Part shown: positions 826-11,635 of the stretch, piece by piece
How positions within the stretch are numbered: the stretch's first letter is position 1
How the letters are laid out: every line of letters starts with the position of its first letter
From: a virus
Taxonomy: Duplodnaviria > Heunggongvirae > Uroviricota > Caudoviricetes
DNA: 11,635 nucleotides
Strand: one strand, 5' to 3'
Virus record (IMG/VR): IMGVR_UViG_2639763139_000004
The notes under the pieces: generated by a model
What the model was told of the DNA's origin: nothing
Database searches by the model: none
The model's input: the letters and a program-made list of their open reading frames with translations, nothing else
Made by a program: the position numbers and the translations under genes

Positions 826-900
<75 letters not shown>

Positions 901-903
901 ATA

Positions 904-979
<76 letters not shown>

Positions 980-981
980 GC

Positions 982-1058
982 TGGCCCACCACCGAGGACT
1001 CGAACCTCGCACCGTCAACTTAGAAGGTTGATGCTCTATCCGGATGAGCTAGTGGTGG
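982..1058 (-). tRNA. tRNA-Arg (anticodon UCU, reads AGA)
   Basis: Reverse complement CCACCACTAGCTCATCCGGATAGAGCATCAACCTTCTAAGTTGACGGTGCGAGGTTCGAGTCCTCGGTGGTGGGCCA. Perfect acceptor, D, anticodon and T stems; loop CUUCUAA; encoded CCA; unusual C1:G72. Confidence 0.8.
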
Positions 1059-1059
1059 T

Positions 1060-1136
1060 TGGTGGCCCTTGCTGGACTTGAACCAGCGACCTGGCGATTA
1101 TGAGTCGCTCGCTCTGACCAACTGAGCTAAAGGGCC
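1060..1136 (-). tRNA. tRNA with CAU anticodon, probably tRNA-Ile2 (ileX/ileZ-like, AUA decoder) rather than Met
   Basis: Reverse complement GGCCCTTTAGCTCAGTTGGTCAGAGCGAGCGACTCATAATCGCCAGGTCGCTGGTTCAAGTCCAGCAAGGGCCACCA. Anticodon loop CUCAUAA; overall similarity to E. coli ileX from memory. Ile versus Met identity cannot be settled from sequence alone. Confidence 0.8.
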
Positions 1137-1325: not shown

Positions 1326-1880
1326 TCAAAAAGCAATAACTTTTTTCTCTATACCAAAAGCCATAACCATTGGTTTGTGCAAAATAAATTCTGCCACCTT
1401 TAGCCAATGCTCAATGCGTCTTTCACAGGTTCTTAAACTCCATTTCGGGTGTGCATCATTCAGCAGTTCAGCCATTTTGCATTTGGTCATCCCCCGCCCC
1501 TCATACCGTTGCCGAAGGACGCTAATCAATCCTGGATGCTCTGCCAGCACCTCACTTATGACCCGATCAATACATAACGCCTCTGCATCAGTACAATGCG
1601 CCAGCCAGCTCTTTTGCTTACCGTTAATCATATCCCGCAAAAAAGCCTCAAGTTCAGACTTGTTCAGACCTGCTTTTTTCATCCTCCGGAGCGCCTCGTT
1701 AATTGCCGTTTTTGTCAGCTTTTTAGAGGTCAACATCAGGTTAAACATATTCCCCGTCTTACCGCCACCAATATACGACCAGCGCCCCCACATACGTAGT
1801 TTTCCCTGAATCCAGACACTTTCCAGCGTGGTGAGACGAAGGTGTTCTCCGCTTTTTCCTGTATTCGTTGGGTAAATCAT
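1326..1880 (-). CDS. Putative late-gene antitermination protein Q (184 aa)
   Basis: ATG at 1878-1880 with GGAG upstream, overlapping the stop of the preceding gene (ATGA). Last gene before a terminator, the tRNAs and the holin; follows nin-like genes. The upstream ORF extension to 2000 is rejected. Assignment is mostly positional. Confidence 0.55.
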   Translation of the reverse strand: MIYPTNTGKSGEHLRLTTLESVWIQGKLRMWGRWSYIGGGKTGNMFNLMLTSKKLTKTAINEALRRMKKAGLNKSELEAFLRDMINGKQKSWLAHCTDAEALCIDRVISEVLAEHPGLISVLRQRYEGRGMTKCKMAELLNDAHPKWSLRTCERRIEHWLKVAEFILHKPMVMAFGIEKKVIAF

Positions 1881-2167
1881 AAATATCCATCCTTTCTCCA
1901 GATTTCTTGTGTGCGAAAAACACCTTCTGCATGCATCAGGCGTAATTCTTCTTTGGTGTAATCGCTGGTTTTTACCCGCCCGTCGATTAAATCGTGGCAC
2001 GAGCTACAGGCAATCGCTGCCTGCATATCGTGTGGCTTTATCGCTGTTCCGCACGTTCCCGCCAGTCGGTAATGCGCCAGCACAGACGTTTCCGGAGCGT
2101 GATTGCAGTAGCCAGGAATTCTGACGGTGCACATCTGCCCCCGCGCCGCTTTAAGTAAATCCACCAT
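1877..2167 (-). CDS. YbcO-like (DUF1364-type) Cys/His-rich nin-region protein, 96 aa
   Basis: ATG 2165-2167 with GGAG upstream; stop overlaps the next start. Motifs CTVRIPGYCNHAPETSVLAH and CSSCHDLIDGR suggest a metal-binding nuclease-like fold; family from memory. Confidence 0.6.
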   Translation of the reverse strand: MVDLLKAARGQMCTVRIPGYCNHAPETSVLAHYRLAGTCGTAIKPHDMQAAIACSSCHDLIDGRVKTSDYTKEELRLMHAEGVFRTQEIWRKDGYL

Positions 2168-2766
2168 TACGCAAACTCCAGCAGCTGCGCGGCCACATTT
2201 TCGACTTGTTCCGGAGAGGAAAATTTACGGAACAGAATCCAGTTCCACAGCACATTCAGTACAGATTTATAAACCTGCTGAAACTCGGTTTCGTCCATAT
2301 TCGCAAACGCGATAGATTTCGCCCGACACCCACGGCTACCGTCCGGATAAAAATGCTCGGTGTAAAATCCGGCCTGAATGGCTACCCACTCGCGGAAAGC
2401 CTCAAACGACTTTAGCAATGCCGTATCACGGGTTCTGCGTGTCGCAACTGTATTCAGATATTGCTCTGCGGCTTCGCTCAGAGCTGGCGTATGTTCCCGG
2501 CCTACTGATTCACACAGGTAATCAACGAAACCGGACACCAGTTTTCGTTCGCGAGGCGTGATCGCCCCACCGACCGGAGTCCAGTAATCGAAACCCAGTT
2601 GCAGGAGTTTGAAAAAACGCTTGTGGAATGCGTAGTTACGCACACGCTTAAAGTCTGCGTGTATCCACTCACCTATTTTGATTTGATGCAGAAAATCGCA
2701 ACTCTCCGGCGTCGCCGGGAGAAGTAATCCGGAAGAGGTTTGTTTGACCAGTTGTATATGTGCCAT
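2167..2766 (-). CDS. Conserved lambdoid nin-region protein (possibly DUF1367/YbcN-like), 199 aa
   Basis: ATG 2764-2766 preceded by GGAGAAAGCC; TAATG overlap with the downstream gene. Family assignment tentative; the TTG-initiated upstream extension is rejected. Confidence 0.6.
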   Translation of the reverse strand: MAHIQLVKQTSSGLLLPATPESCDFLHQIKIGEWIHADFKRVRNYAFHKRFFKLLQLGFDYWTPVGGAITPRERKLVSGFVDYLCESVGREHTPALSEAAEQYLNTVATRRTRDTALLKSFEAFREWVAIQAGFYTEHFYPDGSRGCRAKSIAFANMDETEFQQVYKSVLNVLWNWILFRKFSSPEQVENVAAQLLEFA

Positions 2767-2804
2767 CGGCTTTCTCCGGTGGCACGGTGTTACACAGCAG
2801 GAGT

Positions 2805-3092
2805 TCAATCCTGCTCAAGATTGTAGATGAGTTTATTCTTCAGCAAAAGCAGAAAACCAGCCTTAAAACCAATCTTTTTCAAAACCCGTAATGATGTGAC
2901 AAATTCGTCCTCACGCAAAATAAAACCGTCCGTCAGAAGTCCATTACAAAAATAAAATAACACAGCACCGCTCTTCCTTTGTTGAGATTGCAAACATCTA
3001 ATGCGGCAATGGCTGACAATCGCTCCATTCTCAACGCGCACAGCATAGAGGCCATTTTCACTAAAAATTTCACGCAATTCTTCGATTTTCAT
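2805..3092 (-). CDS. Hypothetical protein, 95 aa
   Basis: ATG 3090-3092 with GGAAGGA upstream. Sits between hok and the nin-like genes. No family recognised. Confidence 0.45.
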   Translation of the reverse strand: MKIEELREIFSENGLYAVRVENGAIVSHCRIRCLQSQQRKSGAVLFYFCNGLLTDGFILREDEFVTSLRVLKKIGFKAGFLLLLKNKLIYNLEQD

Positions 3093-3341: not shown

Positions 3342-3497
3342 TTACTTCCTGGATTCGTAGTCTACGAAGACAGCGACCTCCGTCTGGCCGGTTCGGATTC
3401 GTACCTCACAGAGGTCTTTCCTCGTTACCAGTGCCGTCACTATGACGGTTAAACAGATGACGATCAGGGCGATTAACATCGCCTTTTGCTGCTTCAT
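3342..3497 (-). CDS. hok: Hok/Gef-family type I toxin (51 aa)
   Basis: MKQQKAMLIALIVICLTVIVTALVTRKDLCEVRIRTGQTEVAVFVDYESRK is near-identical in pattern to HokD/RelF from memory. ATG 3495-3497 preceded by AAGGAG. An in-frame upstream extension to 3554 is noted as a possible mok-like coupling reading frame. Confidence 0.85.
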   Translation of the reverse strand: MKQQKAMLIALIVICLTVIVTALVTRKDLCEVRIRTGQTEVAVFVDYESRK

Positions 3498-3668
3498 AGC
3501 CTGCTTCTCCTTGCCTTTCGGCATGTAAGAGGCTAACCTACATGTGCAAAGCATGAAATTGGCCTCAGATTAATGTTAAGCGTCTTGCCGGACGCGTAAT
3601 GTTAACTGGGGCTTTTCTCTATCTGCCTTTTGGTGTTCATGCCTGAAGCAGATAGCCTCAAGCACCCG

Positions 3669-3724: not shown

Positions 3725-4411
3725 TCACTCCTTCTCTTCTTTACCGTAGTGGAGTTGACCAATTTTGATAAGAGGGCGTCCCTGAGATTTGCGGTGTAGA
3801 TTGGTATCGCGCAGAGAATACACACAGCCACAATATTCCTGCTGATAGAATTTTTCGCGCTTGCTGATTTCAATCATACGGGACGAGCCGCCCTGCTTGC
3901 GCCAGTTATAATCCCAGTACACCATGCCCGGATAATGCGCGACGGCTCGCCGCCCACAGTCGTTAACCTGCTGCATATTTTTCCAGCGTGAAATGCCCAG
4001 TGAACTGCTGATCACACTGAAACCATTTTCAGCGGCGTACAGCGCTGTCCGCTCAAAACGCATGTCAAAACACATGGTGCAACGGATCCCTCGTTCGGGC
4101 TCCCATTCCATTCCTTTGGCTCGTTCAAACCAGTTGTCTGTGTCGTAATCAGCATCAATAAACGGCACGCCGTGTTGTTCAGCAAAGCGAATATTCTCAT
4201 CCTTACGAATTAAATACTCTTTCTGAGGATGAATGTTCGGGTTGTAGAAAAAGATGGTGTAGTCGATTCCCGAGGCCTGAAGCGCCTCCATCACCTCACC
4301 GGAACATGGAGCACAGCAAGAGTGCAGTAGTAGTTTGTTTGCCCCGTTTGGGAGCTCCAATTTGGGCCGTTTGAAATCAGCAACTGTCATAAATATGTTT
4401 ATTGAGGTCAT
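3725..4411 (-). CDS. queH: QueH-like epoxyqueuosine reductase (DUF208), 228 aa
   Basis: [14 protein letters not shown] motif near the N-terminus plus further Cys clusters (CTMC, CGCV). ATG at 4409-4411; alternative ATG at 4388-4390; neither has a strong RBS. Confidence 0.65.
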
Positions 4412-4558: not shown

Positions 4559-4915
4559 TTATTCAGTTCTGGATTTTGTCGCCCTGCGTATCCGCGCTTT
4601 CGCGTTACGCTCAATCTGTATCAGCTTTTCTATATTTCTCCGCCTTTCCTGTTCCTCCTGGCGCAATAGCCTTACATCATCTGCCAGTCTGGTTTCTCTT
4701 TTTGCCACAGAGAGCATCCAGTCAAACGGCTCCACAACCGCACCGCAGATTTTACAGCGGACCTGACGCTCTTTTTCGTCAACCCGTACAGAGGCGTGAT
4801 GGCAATATGGTCTTTCCGATGGCTTATAAAGAAAATTAACCTGATTACGAGGGTCATCCTCTTTTATCGGAAATAAAACGATATTGCTTAACTCATCTTC
4901 TGGTTTTATTTCCAT
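4559..4915 (-). CDS. Hypothetical zinc-ribbon protein with basic coiled-coil tail, 118 aa
   Basis: ATG 4913-4915 preceded by AAAGGAGAGGAGC. Contains CHH...(17 aa)...CKIC. The longer upstream ORF start is rejected. Confidence 0.6.
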   Translation of the reverse strand: MEIKPEDELSNIVLFPIKEDDPRNQVNFLYKPSERPYCHHASVRVDEKERQVRCKICGAVVEPFDWMLSVAKRETRLADDVRLLRQEEQERRRNIEKLIQIERNAKARIRRATKSRTE

Positions 4916-4972: not shown

Positions 4973-5395
4973 TCACAGTATCGCCTCCTGAAAATTACCC
5001 TGATAGAAAGCCAGTACACGCTGCATAGCTTCGCTCTTCCGGCACTCGCGACAGATTATATTCAGGCGCCTGTCGTAGCGGCGTATTTCTCCGTCAGGTA
5101 ATGACCAGATAAGGTCCGGATCAACAACAACCGGTTTCCTCACCTTTACTCTCGAGAGTTTTTTGCGGGCGCTTTGCCAGTCCTTGCGAGCCTGTTCAGA
5201 CGGGAATAAGCCGTAGCCAGAATTATATACATCACCACTTGCGACCAGTTCTATGCATAAGCGACCGACAGACGCACGACTGATACCTGTTTCATCGGAC
5301 AACTGCCGAATCGTGACCCGACCGTCCTGATGCACGAGTTCCACAATTCGCGTCTTCAGTTCTTCCCGCTGTTCGGGAGTAAAAGGTTTCGCCAT
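4973..5395 (-). CDS. Hypothetical winged-helix DNA-binding protein with C-terminal CxxC, 140 aa
   Basis: ATG 5393-5395 preceded by GGAGG at 5-nt spacing. HTH-like segment TIRQLSDETGISRASVGRL; CRECRK near the C-terminus. No family recognised. Confidence 0.6.
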   Translation of the reverse strand: MAKPFTPEQREELKTRIVELVHQDGRVTIRQLSDETGISRASVGRLCIELVASGDVYNSGYGLFPSEQARKDWQSARKKLSRVKVRKPVVVDPDLIWSLPDGEIRRYDRRLNIICRECRKSEAMQRVLAFYQGNFQEAIL

Positions 5396-5409
5396 AAATC
5401 CTCCTGAAA

Positions 5410-6156
5410 CTACTTAACAACCCTCGAATGGCTAACATTCGGACGCCAGCTCTCCCAGTTAAAATTCACCCAGCGCCCGCCGTTCATGACCATGCGATCC
5501 ATCACCCGCTCGCCGAGCAATGTTTTCATCACCTCATAGTTCAGGTTTGTCAGCATCCCCACGCTGCGCATCGACGCTGTCCGGCGATCAACAATCTGGT
5601 GCAGCACCACCTGCTCGTTTTTCGTCTCGCGCTGAATGCCAATTTCATCAAGAACCAGCAGATCCACTTCGCACAGCTCCCGCAAAAATTTTTCGCCTGA
5701 CTGCCCGTCGTCATAGCTGGCGTGCAGGGCGCTCATAACATCAGCCACGGTAACCACAATCACTGTCTGACCGTCTTTCAGCAGGCGATTCCCGATAGCT
5801 GCCGCTAAGTGATTCTACCCGGTATCAGGTTTTCCGCTGAACGCAAAATTTGTACACCCGGTCATCAGTTCATCGGCGATGGATTTCGCCTGGCTTAACG
5901 CGTATCGCTGGCCGTCGTTCTGCACCTGGTAATTCGCAAACGAGCATTTACGGTGCAACGGCTGGATGCCTGAGCGATTCAGAATTTTTTCCACCCGCAA
6001 CTGGCGATTCAGGCGGTTGATCTCCTCGCTACGTTTCTGGCCTTCAGCAAGTTGCCACTCGCGCCACTCCGCTACCGTTCTGAATGGGGCGGTTACATGT
6101 GGCGGGGTCAGTCGGCGGATGCGTTCCAGAACGCCGCCTGTCGCAATATTTTTCAT
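5410..6156 (-). pseudogene. DnaC-like helicase loader interrupted by an in-frame amber codon at the Walker A lysine
   Basis: Two listed ORFs (5815-6156 and 5410-5763) are in the same frame. Translation reads ...FAFSGKPDTG-TAG-NHLAAAIGNRLL...DLLVLDEIG..., with TAG at 5815-5817 where the P-loop Lys is expected. Walker B is present downstream. Confidence 0.7.
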
Positions 6157-6547
6157 GGTCCGTTACCCCCTGAAGCCTGGCGGGATCGCACTGTCCGGCA
6201 ACGAGACGGTGTTAACCTGTCGGAGCAACGTCTCAGGCCGAACACCTTTCGGCGCGAACAGACCCTGGTATTCATTGGCGATGCTGTGTCGAATCACCTG
6301 CTCAGGTGTAAAACCCTGCTGACGGAATTTTTCCAGTTCCCGTATCGCCCTGCTCCGTTCGAATCGGTTTTCGCAATGCCTGTCTGAACCGGACCCACTC
6401 ATGCCAGAGTGTTTCCGGCAACCAATCGGGCAGCTCAATAGCCTCCGGCTCGAATTTTTTAGACGCTCGTTTTTGGCGAGGGGGATTTAGGGGGAGATCA
6501 GTATTTAGATCTTCCTCTTCCACTGGTAACGCTTTTTGATCCGTTTG

Positions 6548-6567
6548 TGTAACGCTGGCAGCGTTAC
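6548..6567. repeat. Palindrome TGTAACGC-N5-GCGTTAC, copy 1
   Basis: GTAACGCTG-G-CAGCGTTAC is a perfect 19-bp dyad inside the replisome-organizer gene. Confidence 0.6.
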
Positions 6568-6754
6568 CTTTTCGTTTCAGTTCGCGTATTTTTGTTACTC
6601 GCTCGTTTGTAACCGCCCGTTTTTTAGAGCTTTTTCCGTTATGACGTTCAAAGTTAGGTAGAGAAAGCCCACCGTCATTTTCGACCAGCCATCCAACCTG
6701 AATTAACGTATCAGCAAAACCAGACATAAAAGTGATGCGATCTATTGCACTTTT

Positions 6755-6775
6755 TGTAACGCCGCGAGCGTTACA
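6755..6775. repeat. Palindrome TGTAACGC-N5-GCGTTACA, copy 2
   Basis: TGTAACGC cgcga GCGTTACA, perfect 8-bp arms, inside the replisome-organizer gene. Confidence 0.6.
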
Positions 6776-6946
6776 ATCTGCATTACCGTCTATCATTTGT
6801 TGATCCGCCCATGCCCAGAAGCGAATAACCTTCCCTAATGCGGCATCTGGATCAATATTCAGAATCTCAGCAAGCCTGAATATTTCCGGCTTATCCGGCG
6901 TAATAACCTCGAGCTTTATCCAGTTTGAAGCCATTTGTTTTCACCT

Positions 6947-7011: not shown

Positions 7012-7434
7012 TCAATGCACTACGACAGAATCGCCGGGCGACCCACCACCGCTGAAATGTGCTTTCCGGTAAACGGCCTGGACAGCATCATCATGCGCAT
7101 CAATTGCCGTACTCAACGCTTCCTGCGCCGCCAGTAATGCACGGCGTTCCAGGGTATCGAAGATACAGAGTCGGTGACGCAGCTCACGCGGAAGAATTGC
7201 CAGAACCGCAGGGATCAGTTTCTGAATTTTTTCCCTTTGCGCTTTCGTTTCACCTTTCAACCAACGGTGATAGATATTCTGCTGATTGTTCCAGTCCTTG
7301 CCTGGTACCAGAGACAATTCGCCGCCCCCCTGCCGCAGATATTCTTCAGTAATTGCGTTAGCGACCCACGCCTGCCCTTTTTCGGCTGCCAGGGCTAACA
7401 GCACTGATTCGATGTGCTCATGCCTGATTTTCAT
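7012..7434 (-). CDS. YdaT-like (CII-position) prophage protein, 140 aa
   Basis: ATG 7432-7434 overlapping the end of the Cro-like gene. Sequence MKIRHEHIESVLLALAAEKGQAWVANAI... matches the Rac YdaT family from memory. Occupies the cII position. Confidence 0.7.
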   Translation of the reverse strand: MKIRHEHIESVLLALAAEKGQAWVANAITEEYLRQGGGELSLVPGKDWNNQQNIYHRWLKGETKAQREKIQKLIPAVLAILPRELRHRLCIFDTLERRALLAAQEALSTAIDAHDDAVQAVYRKAHFSGGGSPGDSVVVH

Positions 7435-7645
7435 GAATCACCTTCCCAGGTCGTTTTGCCTTACGATATTCGTCATAAACTTTGGGGTCGTACTGAAGTT
7501 CCCCGCCAGATGCCTCTTGCAGGCGCATCGCGCGACCTTCAGGAACCAGTTCCCCCCATGCAGCAATGCTTGCCAGCCTAACTCCTGCGGCATTGGCAAG
7601 CTTTGTTTTGCTGCCAAAAAACGCTATAGCATCAATTTTCAACAT
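7418..7645 (-). CDS. dicC: DicC/YdaS-like Cro-type regulator, 75 aa
   Basis: ATG 7643-7645 preceded by TAAGGAG. Divergent from the repressor gene. Sequence pattern matches DicC from memory. Confidence 0.75.
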   Translation of the reverse strand: MLKIDAIAFFGSKTKLANAAGVRLASIAAWGELVPEGRAMRLQEASGGELQYDPKVYDEYRKAKRPGKVIHENQA

Positions 7646-7653
7646 ATCGAGCT

Positions 7654-7713
7654 CCTTAGATTTTCCTAAGGAAACTAGACCGTAGAGAAACCTAAGTCAA
7701 GAAAAATTAGAAT
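7654..7713. promoter_or_regulatory. Right-operator-like region with two copies of a 14-bp operator motif and divergent promoters
   Basis: Palindrome CCTTAGATTTTCCTAAGG at 7654-7671 and minus-strand CTTAGGTTTCTCTA at 7683-7696. TAGAAT at 7708-7713 lies 8 nt before the repressor ATG, which has no SD. Confidence 0.5.
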
Positions 7714-7721
7714 TCCCTAAT

Positions 7722-8129
7722 ATGAAAAACGAAACCTTCGGTGCTCGCCTCTTACATAGGCGTAAAAAATTAAAACTGTCTCAGGCCGCATTAGGTAAGC
7801 TGGTCAAAGTGGCTCACGTAACAATTTCTCAATGGGAAAGAGATGAAACACAGCCGGCGGGGAAAAGATTATTCGCACTGAGCCAAGCGCTTCAGTGCTC
7901 ACCGACTTGGCTTCTTTTTGGGGATGAAGATAAACAACCAGGCGAACCGATCCCGGATAATCAGCCAGCCATTCTGACAGAAGATCAAAAAGAGTTACTT
8001 CAACTGTTCGACGCACTGCCTGAGTCAGAGCAAAAGGCCCTGTTGTCAGAGATGCGTGCTCGAGTTGAAAATTTCAACAAACTTTTTGAAGAACTACTCA
8101 AAGCTCGCAAAAGAAGCGCAAACAAATAA
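7722..8129 (+). CDS. dicA: DicA-like HTH repressor, 135 aa, no S24 peptidase domain
   Basis: ATG 7722, TAA 8127-8129. HTH segment LSQAALGKLVKVAHVTISQWERDETQP and tail LFALSQALQCSPTWLLFGDEDKQ...NFNKLFEELLKAR match DicA from memory. Confidence 0.85.
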   Translation: MKNETFGARLLHRRKKLKLSQAALGKLVKVAHVTISQWERDETQPAGKRLFALSQALQCSPTWLLFGDEDKQPGEPIPDNQPAILTEDQKELLQLFDALPESEQKALLSEMRARVENFNKLFEELLKARKRSANK

Positions 8130-8331: not shown

Positions 8332-8487
8332 ATGAATACTATCGATCTTGGCAACAACGAATCTCCGGTGTACGGCGTGTTCCCCAACCAGGACGGCACA
8401 TTCACCGCCATGACGTATACCAAAAGCAAAACGTTTAAAACCGAAGCTGGCGCACGTCGTTGGTTGGGAAGACATTCAGGTGAGTAA
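8332..8487 (+). CDS. ydfA: YdfA/YdaF-like small protein (DUF1391-type), 51 aa
   Basis: ATG 8332 with AAGGGGA upstream. MNTIDLGNNESPVYGVFPNQDGTFTAMTYTKSKTFKTEAGARRWLGRHSGE; first gene after the repressor, as in the dicB operon. Confidence 0.7.
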   Translation: MNTIDLGNNESPVYGVFPNQDGTFTAMTYTKSKTFKTEAGARRWLGRHSGE

Positions 8488-8692: not shown

Positions 8693-8933
8693 ATACCATG
8701 CGCATTGACTGAATTCGCAAACAAAAACAGACGCGCGATACCCGGATAGTCGGTCTGCATAGTCAGATATCTGGCTGCGAATTTGATAAATATCACCGCC
8801 CTTTTCGGAAACATAAGTTCCGTCCGGGAGTTGATTATACGAACCATCTCCATGGGGGATCGTTCTCCTGAATCCTAGTGAGAGCATATATTTATGAAGC
8901 CCTTCGTAATCCTCTGGCTCAGTGGATTTGCCC

Positions 8934-9839
8934 CTATATTTCCAGACATCTGTTATCACTTAACCCATTACAAGCCCGCTGCCGCAGATATTCCCGTGGC
9001 GAGCGATAACCCAGCGCACTATGCGGATGCCATTCGTTATAATGCTCGAACGCCTCTGCAAGGTTCTTTGCTGCCGTTAACCCGTCTGGTTTGGGCATGA
9101 TACTGATGTAGTCACGCTTTATCGTTTTCACGAAGCTCTCTGCTATTCCGTTACTCTCCGGACTCCGCACCGCCGTGTTCTTCGGTTCAAGTCCCAACAT
9201 CCGGGCGAACTGGCGTGTTTCATTAGCCCGGTAGCATGAACCATTATCCGTCAGCCACTCCACTGGAGACGACGGAAGATCGTTGCCGAAGCGGCGTTCC
9301 ACCGCTCCCAGCATGACGTCCTGTACTGTTTCACTGTTGAAGCCGCCGGTAGTCACCGCCCAGTGCAGTGCCTCACGATCACAGCAGTCCAGCGCGAACG
9401 TGACACGCAGTCTCTCTCCGTTATCACAGCAGAACTCGAACCCGTCAGAGCACCATCGCTGATTGCTTTCTTTCACGGCCACTCTGCCTGTATGTGCCCG
9501 TTTCGATGGCGGTACAGCAGGTTTTCGCTCAAGCAACAGCGCATTCTGGCGCATGAGCCGGTAAACACGTTTGGCATTGATCGCAGGCATACCATCAAGT
9601 TCTGCCTGTCTGCGAAGCAGCGCCCATACCCGACGATAACCATACGTGGGCAGCTCTCCGATAACATGGTGTATACGGAGAAGCACATCCGTATCATCAG
9701 TGTGACGACTGCGGCGGCCATCCATCCAGTCATCGGTTCGTCTGAGAATGACGTGCAACTGCGCACGCGACACCCGGAGACAACGGCTGACTAAGCTTAC
9801 TCCCCATCCCCGGGCAATAAGGGCGCGTGCGCTATCCAC
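8934..9839 (-). CDS. insD: IS2 transposase OrfB (InsD), made as an OrfAB fusion by -1 frameshifting
   Basis: 301-aa frame with integrase-core motifs. Slippery heptamer A AAA AAG at 9839-9845 (minus) sits at the InsC/InsD overlap. Confidence 0.9.
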
Positions 9840-10162
9840 TTTTTTGCCCGTCCATATTCAACGGCTTCTTTGAGGAGTTCATTTTCCATCGTTTTCTTGC
9901 CGAGCAGGCGCTGGAGTTCTTTAATCTGCTTCATGGCGGCAGCAAGTTCAGAGGCAGGAACAACCTGTTCTCCGGCGGCCACAGCAGTAAGACTTCCTTC
10001 CTGGTATTGCTTACGCCAGAGAAATAACTGGCTGGCTGCTACACCATGTTGCCGGGCAACGAGGGAGACCGTCATCCCCGGTTCAAAGCTCTGCTGAACA
10101 ATTGCGATCTTTTCCTGTGTGGTACGCCGTCTGCGTTTCTCCGGCCCTAAGACATCAATCAT
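9797..10162 (-). CDS. insC: IS2 OrfA (InsC), 121 aa
   Basis: ATG 10160-10162; sequence [41 protein letters not shown]... is a typical IS3-family HTH OrfA. Confidence 0.9.
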
Positions 10163-10474
10163 CTGTTCTCCAATGACTAGTCTAAAAACTAGTATTAAGA
10201 CTATCACTTTTTAACATTGATGCAGTCTCTTTGAGAGCTGACATCGCTAATACATCACTTGCTCACTCTTCTTATTGTTGGGGTATTCAGATTATACAAA
10301 TTTCTTGTTGTTGGGGAATAACAGGAACCACCTCGCCTGACGTAGTTAAAAGCAGGCACACAACGCGAAATGACGCGGCGGTAAGTATGGCGGAGTTATT
10401 CCTTCCCCGTTGAGGACACCGGGTTGTCAGGTTGACCATACGCTTAAGTGACAACCACGCCACAACACTCCATG

Positions 10475-10530: not shown

Positions 10531-10826
10531 AAAGTGAATTTTGTGATGCGGTGAATGCGGCTGAGCGCACGCGGAACAGTTAAAAAGCGATTAGTTCCCA
10601 CGTATCGGGTGGTTATGGGTTTCCCTGTATCCGGCGTTAATTGTTAACTGGTTAACGTCACCTGGAGGCACCAGGCACCGCATCAACAAAGTTCACTTCG
10701 GTGATGAAAGGTAAGAGAAAATGTTGAATGTAGCTATTGAAAACCAGAACGGGTGGAATTATAGTGCATCTGCACCTCATAAAACGGGGGCCGGGCGTGG
10801 AAACCCGAACGTTACTCGAGCGCATA

Positions 10827-10848
10827 GCCGCGCTGAAGCGGTTTTTTT
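10827..10848 (+). terminator. Hairpin plus T7 in the leader upstream of the Rha-like gene
   Basis: AGCCGC gctgaa GCGGTT followed by TTTTTTT (10842-10848). Lies inside the rejected N-terminal extension of the Rha ORF. Confidence 0.35.
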
Positions 10849-11017
10849 ATGCGTAATGCACAGCTCCATTCAAATTATGGTGGGATGTGCAGGGCAGTCG
10901 CAAGACTGGCCGGGTTCTCGAGTGACCGGTATTTCCACCCCTGTACGTCTCACCACCCTTATGGTCGTGGAAAACCTCGGTGGTGAGTTAATTAACTTAT
11001 CACTCGAGGATGCCATC

Positions 11018-11559
11018 ATGGCTACTATCCCTGCCCTTTCTCACCCTGACGTAACCATCGAAAACGGTCGCGCTGTCACTACGTCTGTTGCGGTTGCAGA
11101 GTTCTTCCACAAACGACACGACAATGTGTTACGTGCCATCGCAAATACTGAATGCTCACCTGAATTTAACGCCCTCAATTTTGAGGACGTCACCTACACC
11201 GACACCAAAGGCGAAAAACGCCCAATGTACCAAATCACCAAAAACGGCTTCGTTTTCCTGGTGATGGGCTTCACTGGGAAAAAAGCCGCTGCATTCAAAG
11301 AGGCCTACATCGCTGATGTTCGACCGCATGGAGGCAGAACTGCACCAGAATAATACCCCGTCCGCTGACAAGATGATTCCGGGTAACGGTCGCACTCTGG
11401 TTGTGCACTTCGACGAACACGGCAATATCAGATTCACCGAAACTGTTCCTGACGGTGCACTGGTCTGTACCCTGGATACTTTCCAGTTTTATCTGGAAAA
11501 ACAGGGGTGGGCTCTTGTAAACCGGAGCGCAATTAAAAATATGACCGTAGAGCAGCTGC
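11018..11559 (+). pseudogene. Rha-family regulatory protein gene, frameshifted near 11318 and cut at its 3' end by IS2
   Basis: ATG 11018 preceded by GAGGA. Frame 1 gives ...VAVAEFFHKRHDNVLRAI...MYQITKNGFVFLVMGFTGKKAAAFKEAYIAD then VRPHGGRTAPE*. The Rha-like continuation FDRMEAELHQ... is in the +1 frame from 11319 and runs into the IS2 end at 11560. Confidence 0.55.
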
Positions 11560-11635
11560 TAGACTGGCCCCCTGAATCTCCAGACAACCAGTATCACTTA
11601 TTTAAGTGATAGTCTTAATACTAGTTTTTAGACTA
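11560..11635 (+). mobile_element. Left end of a second IS2 copy, inverted relative to the first, running off the window
   Basis: TAGACTGGCCCCCTGAATCTCCAGACAACCAGTATCACTTATTTAAGTGATAGTCTTAATACTAGTTTTTAGACTA; its last 32 nt are the exact reverse complement of 10178-10209. Confidence 0.85.

Follow-up and report, generated by a model that had tools for sequence, protein, structure and literature searches.

ydaV of Shigella flexneri is very probably a fixed pseudogene in the replication module of a defective lambdoid prophage

The systems closest to the locus described here include the replication module of phage lambda, the Rac prophage and the helicase loader DnaC of Escherichia coli. Lambda P is not an AAA+ protein. 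The Walker A residue of DnaC is Lys112, replacement of which by arginine (K112R) abolishes ATPase activity, and the sensor I and arginine-finger motifs of this loader have also been identified (PMC8213410). In the Rac prophage, YdaS and YdaT are regarded as homologues of Cro and CII (PMC5917428). Our literature search for ydaV as a prophage DnaC-like gene found no paper, and the ydaV papers that were found treat only the gene content of Rac. In bacteria, in-frame stop codons are commonest in genes of the mobilome, many of which are pseudogenes (PMC7918605). Here we describe a ydaV gene carrying such a stop. It belongs to the replication module of a lambdoid prophage that is defective, and it is in all likelihood a fixed pseudogene and an outcome of ordinary prophage decay.

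The stretch of DNA that was analysed, called the window, is the whole of the 11,635-bp draft contig AMKF01000019.1 (assembly GCA_000815805.1) in reversed orientation. S. flexneri chromosomes are colinear with it and share 99.6–99.9% identity. The gene map was carried over from an annotated relative and checked with tblastn (Table 1). The window represents the early-right and nin region of a defective, Rac-like lambdoid prophage. A CI-like HTH gene on the plus strand is followed on the minus strand by Cro, YdaT, a phrog_2509 initiator and ydaV, which is the order of a Rac-like replication module. The immunity region (7012..8129) is intact and would drive or repress the replication operon, and the IS2 insertion at its left is a further sign that the prophage is defective. 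In complete genomes, an ipaH gene (LRR_TTSS and NEL domains) lies a few kilobases past the immunity region.

Table 1 Features of the window, in window coordinates.
Feature	Position	Strand	Remarks
Contig-end IS3-family element	1-56
Truncated holin	56-145
Four prophage tRNAs	826-1136	-	ARAGORN
Q-like DUF1133, YbcO, DUF1367, Rem-like	1329-3092
hokD / sok	3345-3667	-	hokD ORF intact
QueH (epoxyqueuosine reductase homologue)	3728-4390	-	Intact
Hypothetical gene	4562-4915
DUF977	4976-5395
ydaV pseudogene (YdaV-family, DnaC-like AAA+ replicative-helicase loader)	5410..6156	-	248 codons including one internal TAG; from translation
Downstream in-frame ORF from Met141, 108 aa	5410..5736	-	Separate gene in several public annotations
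Walker B DLLVLDEIG, codons 165-173	5638..5664	-	Sequence intact, downstream of stop
Walker A / P-loop, codons 108-115	5812..5835	-	Contains both lesions; from alignment
Amber codon 114 (TAG from AAG)	5815..5817	-	Coding-strand A>T at 5817, relative to intact loci L001/L003 and outgroup L002
Remaining N-terminal ORF, 113 aa plus stop	5815..6156	-	Called as a gene in public annotations (P0002, P0005)
Codon 111 GAT (Asp) from GGT (Gly), G111D	5824..5826	-	Change at 5825, relative to intact allele; opposite DnaC G109
Partner replication-initiator gene (phrog_2509, ydaU position)	6163..6934	-	Frameshifted; 11-bp deletion between 6345 and 6346
YdaT/CII-like	7012-7434	-	Pfam YdaT_toxin; 100% protein identity to FDAARGOS_943
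Cro	7418-7645	-	P22_Cro on homologous loci; 100% protein identity to FDAARGOS_943
CI-like HTH repressor	7722-8129	+	HTH_3 on homologous loci; 100% protein identity to FDAARGOS_943
DUF1391	8332-8484
IS2	8920-10214	-	Left of immunity region
Rha-family gene	10721-11564	+
Contig-end IS2	11560-11635

Several observations concern the element outside its replication module. The QueH gene resides in the nin region of the prophage, roughly 2.6 kb from the tRNA cluster of the same element, in which the tRNA with a CAT anticodon is called Met by ARAGORN and tRNA-Ile by RefSeq in a relative. The sok antitoxin RNA gives a full-length match to Rfam RF01794 (117 bits) at hokD. In E. coli FDAARGOS_943, an IS1 separates the tRNAs from DUF1133; the window has no such element (junction 1274–1283). 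The Rha gene is split over two frames near 11277–11317 in AMKF01000019.1 alone, and is only about 85% identical to the allele that other S. flexneri genomes have in the corresponding position, where the gene is intact (282 aa); the split may reflect either a mistake in the draft assembly or a frameshift private to this contig. Two Rfam matches above the gathering score, the isrK Hfq-binding RNA at 10772–10848 (plus strand, 59.6 bits) and the C4 antisense RNA at 10873–10960 (plus strand, 76.7 bits), lie inside the 5′ part of the Rha ORF, which suggests that the real Rha start is further downstream. Together these matches suggest an RNA-based antirepressor control region at 10772–10960.

Translation of the minus strand from 6156 to 5410 reveals a single internal stop, in the context ...NFAFSGKPDTG*NHLAAAIGNRLL..., in a frame that is open elsewhere in the window. 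The uninterrupted full-length frame that characterizes the loader family is therefore broken by the TAG at codon 114. Family membership was assessed with the closest intact allele, the ydaV gene of E. coli FDAARGOS_943 (WP_000789009.1; loci L001 and L003, NZ_CP065615.1). This protein exceeds the cut-off of NCBIfam NF009043/PRK12377 (510.4 bits, cut-off 389, over residues 1–248 of 248) and so belongs to that family, whereas its score of 306.1 bits against the chromosomal DnaC equivalog NF005931 falls below the cut-off of 357. It also matches PHROG 50, ‘DnaC-like helicase loader’ (E=1e-82), and HMMER aligns it end to end with E. coli DnaC (PDB 6qel_G; E=8e-75, 50% identity over 239 residues). 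These matches identify the window gene as a DnaC paralogue carried by a prophage, distinct from the chromosomal dnaC gene. With lysine restored at codon 114, the window sequence additionally yields a Pfam IstB_IS21 match of 66.9 bits and a Bac_DnaA match.

The alignment to DnaC also reveals which parts of the loader precede the stop and which follow it. Residues 2–57 align with DnaC residues 2–55, both in 6qel_G and in the isolated fragment 6kza_C (E=6.9e-5), and this N-terminal portion lies upstream of the stop. The remaining 113-aa ORF accordingly keeps the entire DnaB-binding N-terminal domain and the linker and lacks the ATPase fold. Downstream, the DLLVLDEIG segment pairs with the DnaC Walker B motif DLLVIDEIG, and the segments GMLTN and LLGERVMDRM match the DnaC counterparts that hold the sensor I asparagine and the arginine-finger region; the DNA for these is present but, being after the stop, untranslated. 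The ORF that begins at Met141 contains no Walker A motif.

Two nucleotide substitutions, 8 nt apart, are the sole differences between the window copy and the intact allele across the 747-nt gene. Specifically, comparison of window positions 5300–6300 with FDAARGOS_943 yields three differing positions, of which two are inside ydaV (5817 and 5825). Codon 114, now a stop, is opposite DnaC K112 in the HMMER alignment to 6qel_G, and the P-loop has changed from GKPGTGKN to GKPDTG*N, which no longer conforms to the Walker A pattern GxxGxGK. The outgroup locus (L002) has the intact state at both positions, and thus both K114* and G111D are derived. The initial annotation had reported, at exactly these coordinates, an amber codon replacing the Walker A lysine of a DnaC-like helicase loader, with the Walker B motif and the remainder of the gene in frame, and each of these points is borne out by the translation and alignments. 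Its proposal of one AAG to TAG change does explain the stop, because the intact allele reads AAG, but it passed over the second change in the same P-loop, GGT to GAT, which it had transcribed without flagging.

The probability that both substitutions fall in the 24-nt P-loop is roughly 0.001 for two hits in 747 nt, or roughly 0.004 given the 29 substitutions over 7.6 kb of the region, where both values assume uniform mutation and were calculated post hoc. Close pairs of substitutions are not rare as such in the region alignment, where 0.84 are expected. A templated origin of the pair, through a quasi-palindrome or ectopic gene conversion, found no support: the window contains no second copy of any k-mer of 10 or more that covers one of the sites, nor of any that covers both.

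The two changes occur together in all 15 alleles that were aligned, which come from independent assemblies and are mostly from S. flexneri. Carriers include S. flexneri 5a M90T (CP037923), CP026799, CP026810, the NCTC assembly UGYR01 and strain SFBU1023, as well as three IMG/VR prophages, one gut metagenome and one Logan assembly. In a DNA scan of species-representative genomes, two carried the double mutant: that of S. flexneri SFBU1023 and one of 4.44 Mb with the label E. coli ECMA0423. At the protein level, at least 14 contigs, 4 of them complete chromosomes, are annotated with an identical truncated product of 113 aa. Cluster look-up places this product (P0002) on 8 contigs with S. flexneri 5a M90T as host, and a variant differing by P19Q (P0005) on 330 contigs of S. 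flexneri, including strain 2003036. The P19Q change is non-synonymous, is located inside the DnaB-binding domain and is carried by the dominant S. flexneri clade. The double-mutant allele is a fixed, established pseudogene across S. flexneri sublineages, and hundreds of public genomes already contain it in the form of annotated fragments.

FDAARGOS_943 and FDAARGOS_944 are the only complete genomes labelled E. coli that carry the prophage at more than 99% identity, and their ydaV genes are intact. Both have several IS copies (IS1, IS2 and IS600) in and beside the prophage. These two strains and ECMA0423 may be Shigella or EIEC-like strains filed as E. coli.

Alleles carrying only one of the two changes were absent from every collection searched. 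Among 83 copies of the motif in IMG/VR, 80 are wild type, 3 are double mutants and none is a single mutant; 77 of the 80 wild-type copies are full length (244–248 aa), which indicates that the loader family is normally intact. A 51-nt probe able to catch either single mutant found neither change in 5,426 complete E. coli genomes. An exact look-up for the protein with Asp111 and Lys114, on three backgrounds, returned nothing from a collection of 15 billion proteins, and the DNA pattern with the stop only had 0 matches in metagenome and genome collections. A pattern requiring Asp111 with either base at 5817 had 0 metagenome matches and 2 genome matches, both of which are double mutants. One apparent stop-only candidate, a 113-aa entry with Gly111 from S. 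sonnei (P0016), was rejected. In a control using neighbouring lengths, 8 of 10 (108, 111, 112 and 114–118 aa) were likewise entries of the type ‘DnaC, partial’ on short contigs, so P0016 is one of a ladder of partial lengths, that is, a contig-end fragment that carries no evidence of a stop. G111D and K114* arose together or in quick succession, and the data agree equally well with both.

To order the lesions of the replication module, the region from Cro to DUF977 was aligned for twelve of the double-mutant alleles. The partner initiator gene, which has no Pfam or NCBIfam match, has lost one CGCCC direct repeat and the six bases between two repeats, a pattern expected of replication slippage. 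This 11-bp deletion is present in the window and in most S. flexneri loci, and is absent in two loci (L010 and L013) that both carry G111D and K114*. Thus, the loader lesion is the earlier of the two. A +1 frameshift in ydaT is confined to four loci (L005–L007 and L009) and is a later, sublineage-specific event, as is the single-base (+1) insertion that follows ydaV codon 178, beyond the stop, in M90T. This succession, together with the fixation of the allele across S. flexneri sublineages, overturns at strain level the suggestion of the initial annotation that the mutation might be recent.

Downstream of the stop, private point changes among the double-mutant alleles comprise 3 synonymous and 0 non-synonymous substitutions, too few events for a dN/dS estimate to separate neutral decay from constraint. 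In two loci (L006 and L007; M90T CP037923 and NCTC UGYR01), the distal part of ydaV has 12 mostly third-position substitutions in 72 nt, at about window positions 5563–5635. Such patches of clustered third-position changes, also later and sublineage-specific, have the appearance of gene conversion in which paralogous copies in other prophages were the donors. In another locus (L004, CP026810.1, 7224–7994), an extra 1-bp deletion at about window position 6484 combines with the 11-bp deletion so that the initiator (256 aa) returns to its frame once about 43 codons have been read out of frame, either as a compensating mutation or as a long-read homopolymer error.

These results are most consistent with decay of a prophage replication module. 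A functional phage of this kind would have an early rightward operon made up of cro, ydaT (cII-like), the initiator gene and ydaV, and the initiator would mark the phage origin. By analogy with DnaC, the N-terminal domain of YdaV would capture host DnaB and the AAA+ ATPase would place DnaB on the opened origin, a mechanism proposed from the 50% identity to the E. coli protein and from gene order. With G111D and K114amber in place, translation would end at residue 113, before any ATPase fold, and the prophage would therefore probably be unable to recruit DnaB for its own replication. The 11-bp slippage deletion then frameshifted the initiator, some strains gained frameshifts in ydaT and in distal ydaV, and IS elements broke up the prophage. 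The lesions, their derived state, their order relative to the initiator deletion and their spread in S. flexneri are seen directly in the sequences, and we infer that the ydaV product is non-functional and that the stop is not read through. Set against decay are the 747-nt frame, which is otherwise open in the window, and the state of the remaining early and nin-region genes. Relative to the nearest intact relative, only the two replication genes are disabled between 1329 and 8484 and the rest are intact, such that the element is not uniformly degraded.

This uneven pattern of damage invites a selective explanation, which refines the fixed-pseudogene reading and does not replace it. A P-loop hit such as G111D could have produced an ATPase-dead loader that still bound DnaB and was harmful on derepression, whereupon the nearby nonsense mutation would have been favoured for eliminating this protein; in a wider form of this model, loss of replication itself was favoured, immobilising the prophage beside its ipaH effector cargo. 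The placement of both changes of the gene in the P-loop, the restriction of damage to the two replication genes and the proximity of ipaH in complete genomes all accord with selection, and ATPase-mutant DnaC proteins, which are toxic on over-expression, had to be expressed in the periplasm (PMC8213410). Nevertheless, we regard selected stepwise inactivation as unlikely. The probabilities for the P-loop are post hoc, the searches described above contain no single-mutant intermediate, and the operon is normally repressed by the intact CI-like repressor, which would limit toxicity. Moreover, a single multi-nucleotide mutation and subsequent drift in a pathogen that passed through bottlenecks fit the data equally well.

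It is improbable that the 113-aa N-terminal fragment has a function of its own, for example as a modulator of DnaB or as a barrier against superinfection by DnaB-dependent phages. The fragment does keep the full helicase-binding domain, as judged from the 6qel and 6kza alignments, it is conserved across S. flexneri, and the isolated helicase-binding domain of DnaC can activate unwinding by DnaB in vitro (PMC8213410). However, recent common descent explains this conservation, and the P19Q change of the dominant clade is within the very domain concerned. Furthermore, the operon lies behind an intact repressor, which makes expression putative, and truncated alleles do not recur in other lineages, given that nearly all wild-type IMG/VR copies are full length. 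We attach similarly little weight to a composite scenario in which the P-loop pair is not a chance event, an ATPase-dead loader that still clamped DnaB was harmful, truncation at residue 113 was then selected, and the retained DnaB-binding domain might serve as a modulator of DnaB or as a decoy against incoming phages that must capture it.

Were the amber codon decoded, whether through a suppressor tRNA of the host or by a near-cognate tRNA, the full-length loader could still be made, as the initial annotation had also entertained in the form of an amber-suppressor host. The downstream frame is still open in the window, and read-through has been proposed for some conserved bacterial in-frame stops in a survey that argues for its frequent occurrence, although most in-frame stops of the mobilome are attributed there to pseudogenes (PMC7918605). 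Within the element, none of the four prophage tRNAs (anticodons Gly-TCC, Thr-TGT, Arg-TCT and CAT) is a suppressor, the partner initiator is frameshifted, and the M90T copy has its additional frameshift after the stop. The amino acid that common amber suppressors supply is Gln, Tyr or Ser rather than Lys, so that read-through with them would leave the Walker A position without its lysine. The P-loop is damaged further by G111D. The same annotation had anticipated that a read-through product would likely be inactive for want of the catalytic lysine, an expectation that stands and to which G111D and the broken initiator add further reasons to find a working product implausible. Production of a full-length loader thus finds no support here and is scarcely credible. 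Finally, a sequencing or assembly error, for which one could cite the short draft contig and the private Rha frameshift that is possibly such an error, can be dismissed, because the identical TAG and GAT recur in 15 independent assemblies obtained with different technologies, including four finished chromosomes, as the comparison with orthologues called for by the initial annotation revealed.

Reading ydaV as a fixed pseudogene has a direct bearing on annotation, because the two short ORFs labelled ‘DnaC’ or ‘hypothetical’ at this site in S. flexneri are the halves of one dead ydaV gene. The replication module of an ipaH-adjacent prophage is doubly disabled, which fits a prophage immobilised in the chromosome. 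An ordered lesion series, in which the loader is followed by the initiator and then by frameshifts, could inform work on prophage domestication. The clustering in the P-loop would be of wider interest only if an ATPase-dead prophage loader is toxic.

Comparison with known systems places the locus as follows. The intact allele shares with E. coli DnaC (6QEL/6QEM) the arrangement of an N-terminal DnaB-binding domain and an AAA+ domain, along with the motifs GKPGTGKN, DLLV(L/I)DEIG, GMLTN and LLGERVMDRM; the window gene differs in being a prophage paralogue whose Walker A motif is destroyed (D111 and a stop at 114). The ydaV genes of Rac in E. coli K-12 and of phages vB_EcoS-683R6 and ‘Escherichia phage Rac’ are closer, with 93.6–94.5% nucleotide identity over 97% of the gene. 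Rac-like ydaV genes occupy the same place in an early operon of cI, cro, ydaT, initiator and ydaV, and ydaV is the RefSeq name of the intact allele. Unlike the window copy, they are annotated as a single CDS, and the intact ydaV alleles that were translated are uninterrupted. The window initiator is a phrog_2509 protein, whereas some relatives carry a gene annotated YdaU instead. Judged by gene order and the established biology of lambda, the module would parallel lambda O and P, in that an origin-binding initiator is followed by a DnaB-delivering gene in the early rightward operon after cro and cII, but its loader is a DnaC-type ATPase. IS21 IstB has a similar AAA+ core (Pfam PF01695; PDB 5bq5 and 8q3w, E of about 1e-9), but this similarity is confined to residues of about 100–220, there is no neighbouring IstA transposase, and the IstB equivalog score is 82 bits against a cut-off of 200. 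The locus matches the decay of defective Shigella prophages in that one prophage has acquired a nonsense point mutation and a slippage deletion as well as insertions of IS2 and an IS3-family element, with IS ends bounding the contig; it does not differ from this process in kind, and is unusual only in having two substitutions in one 8-codon motif.
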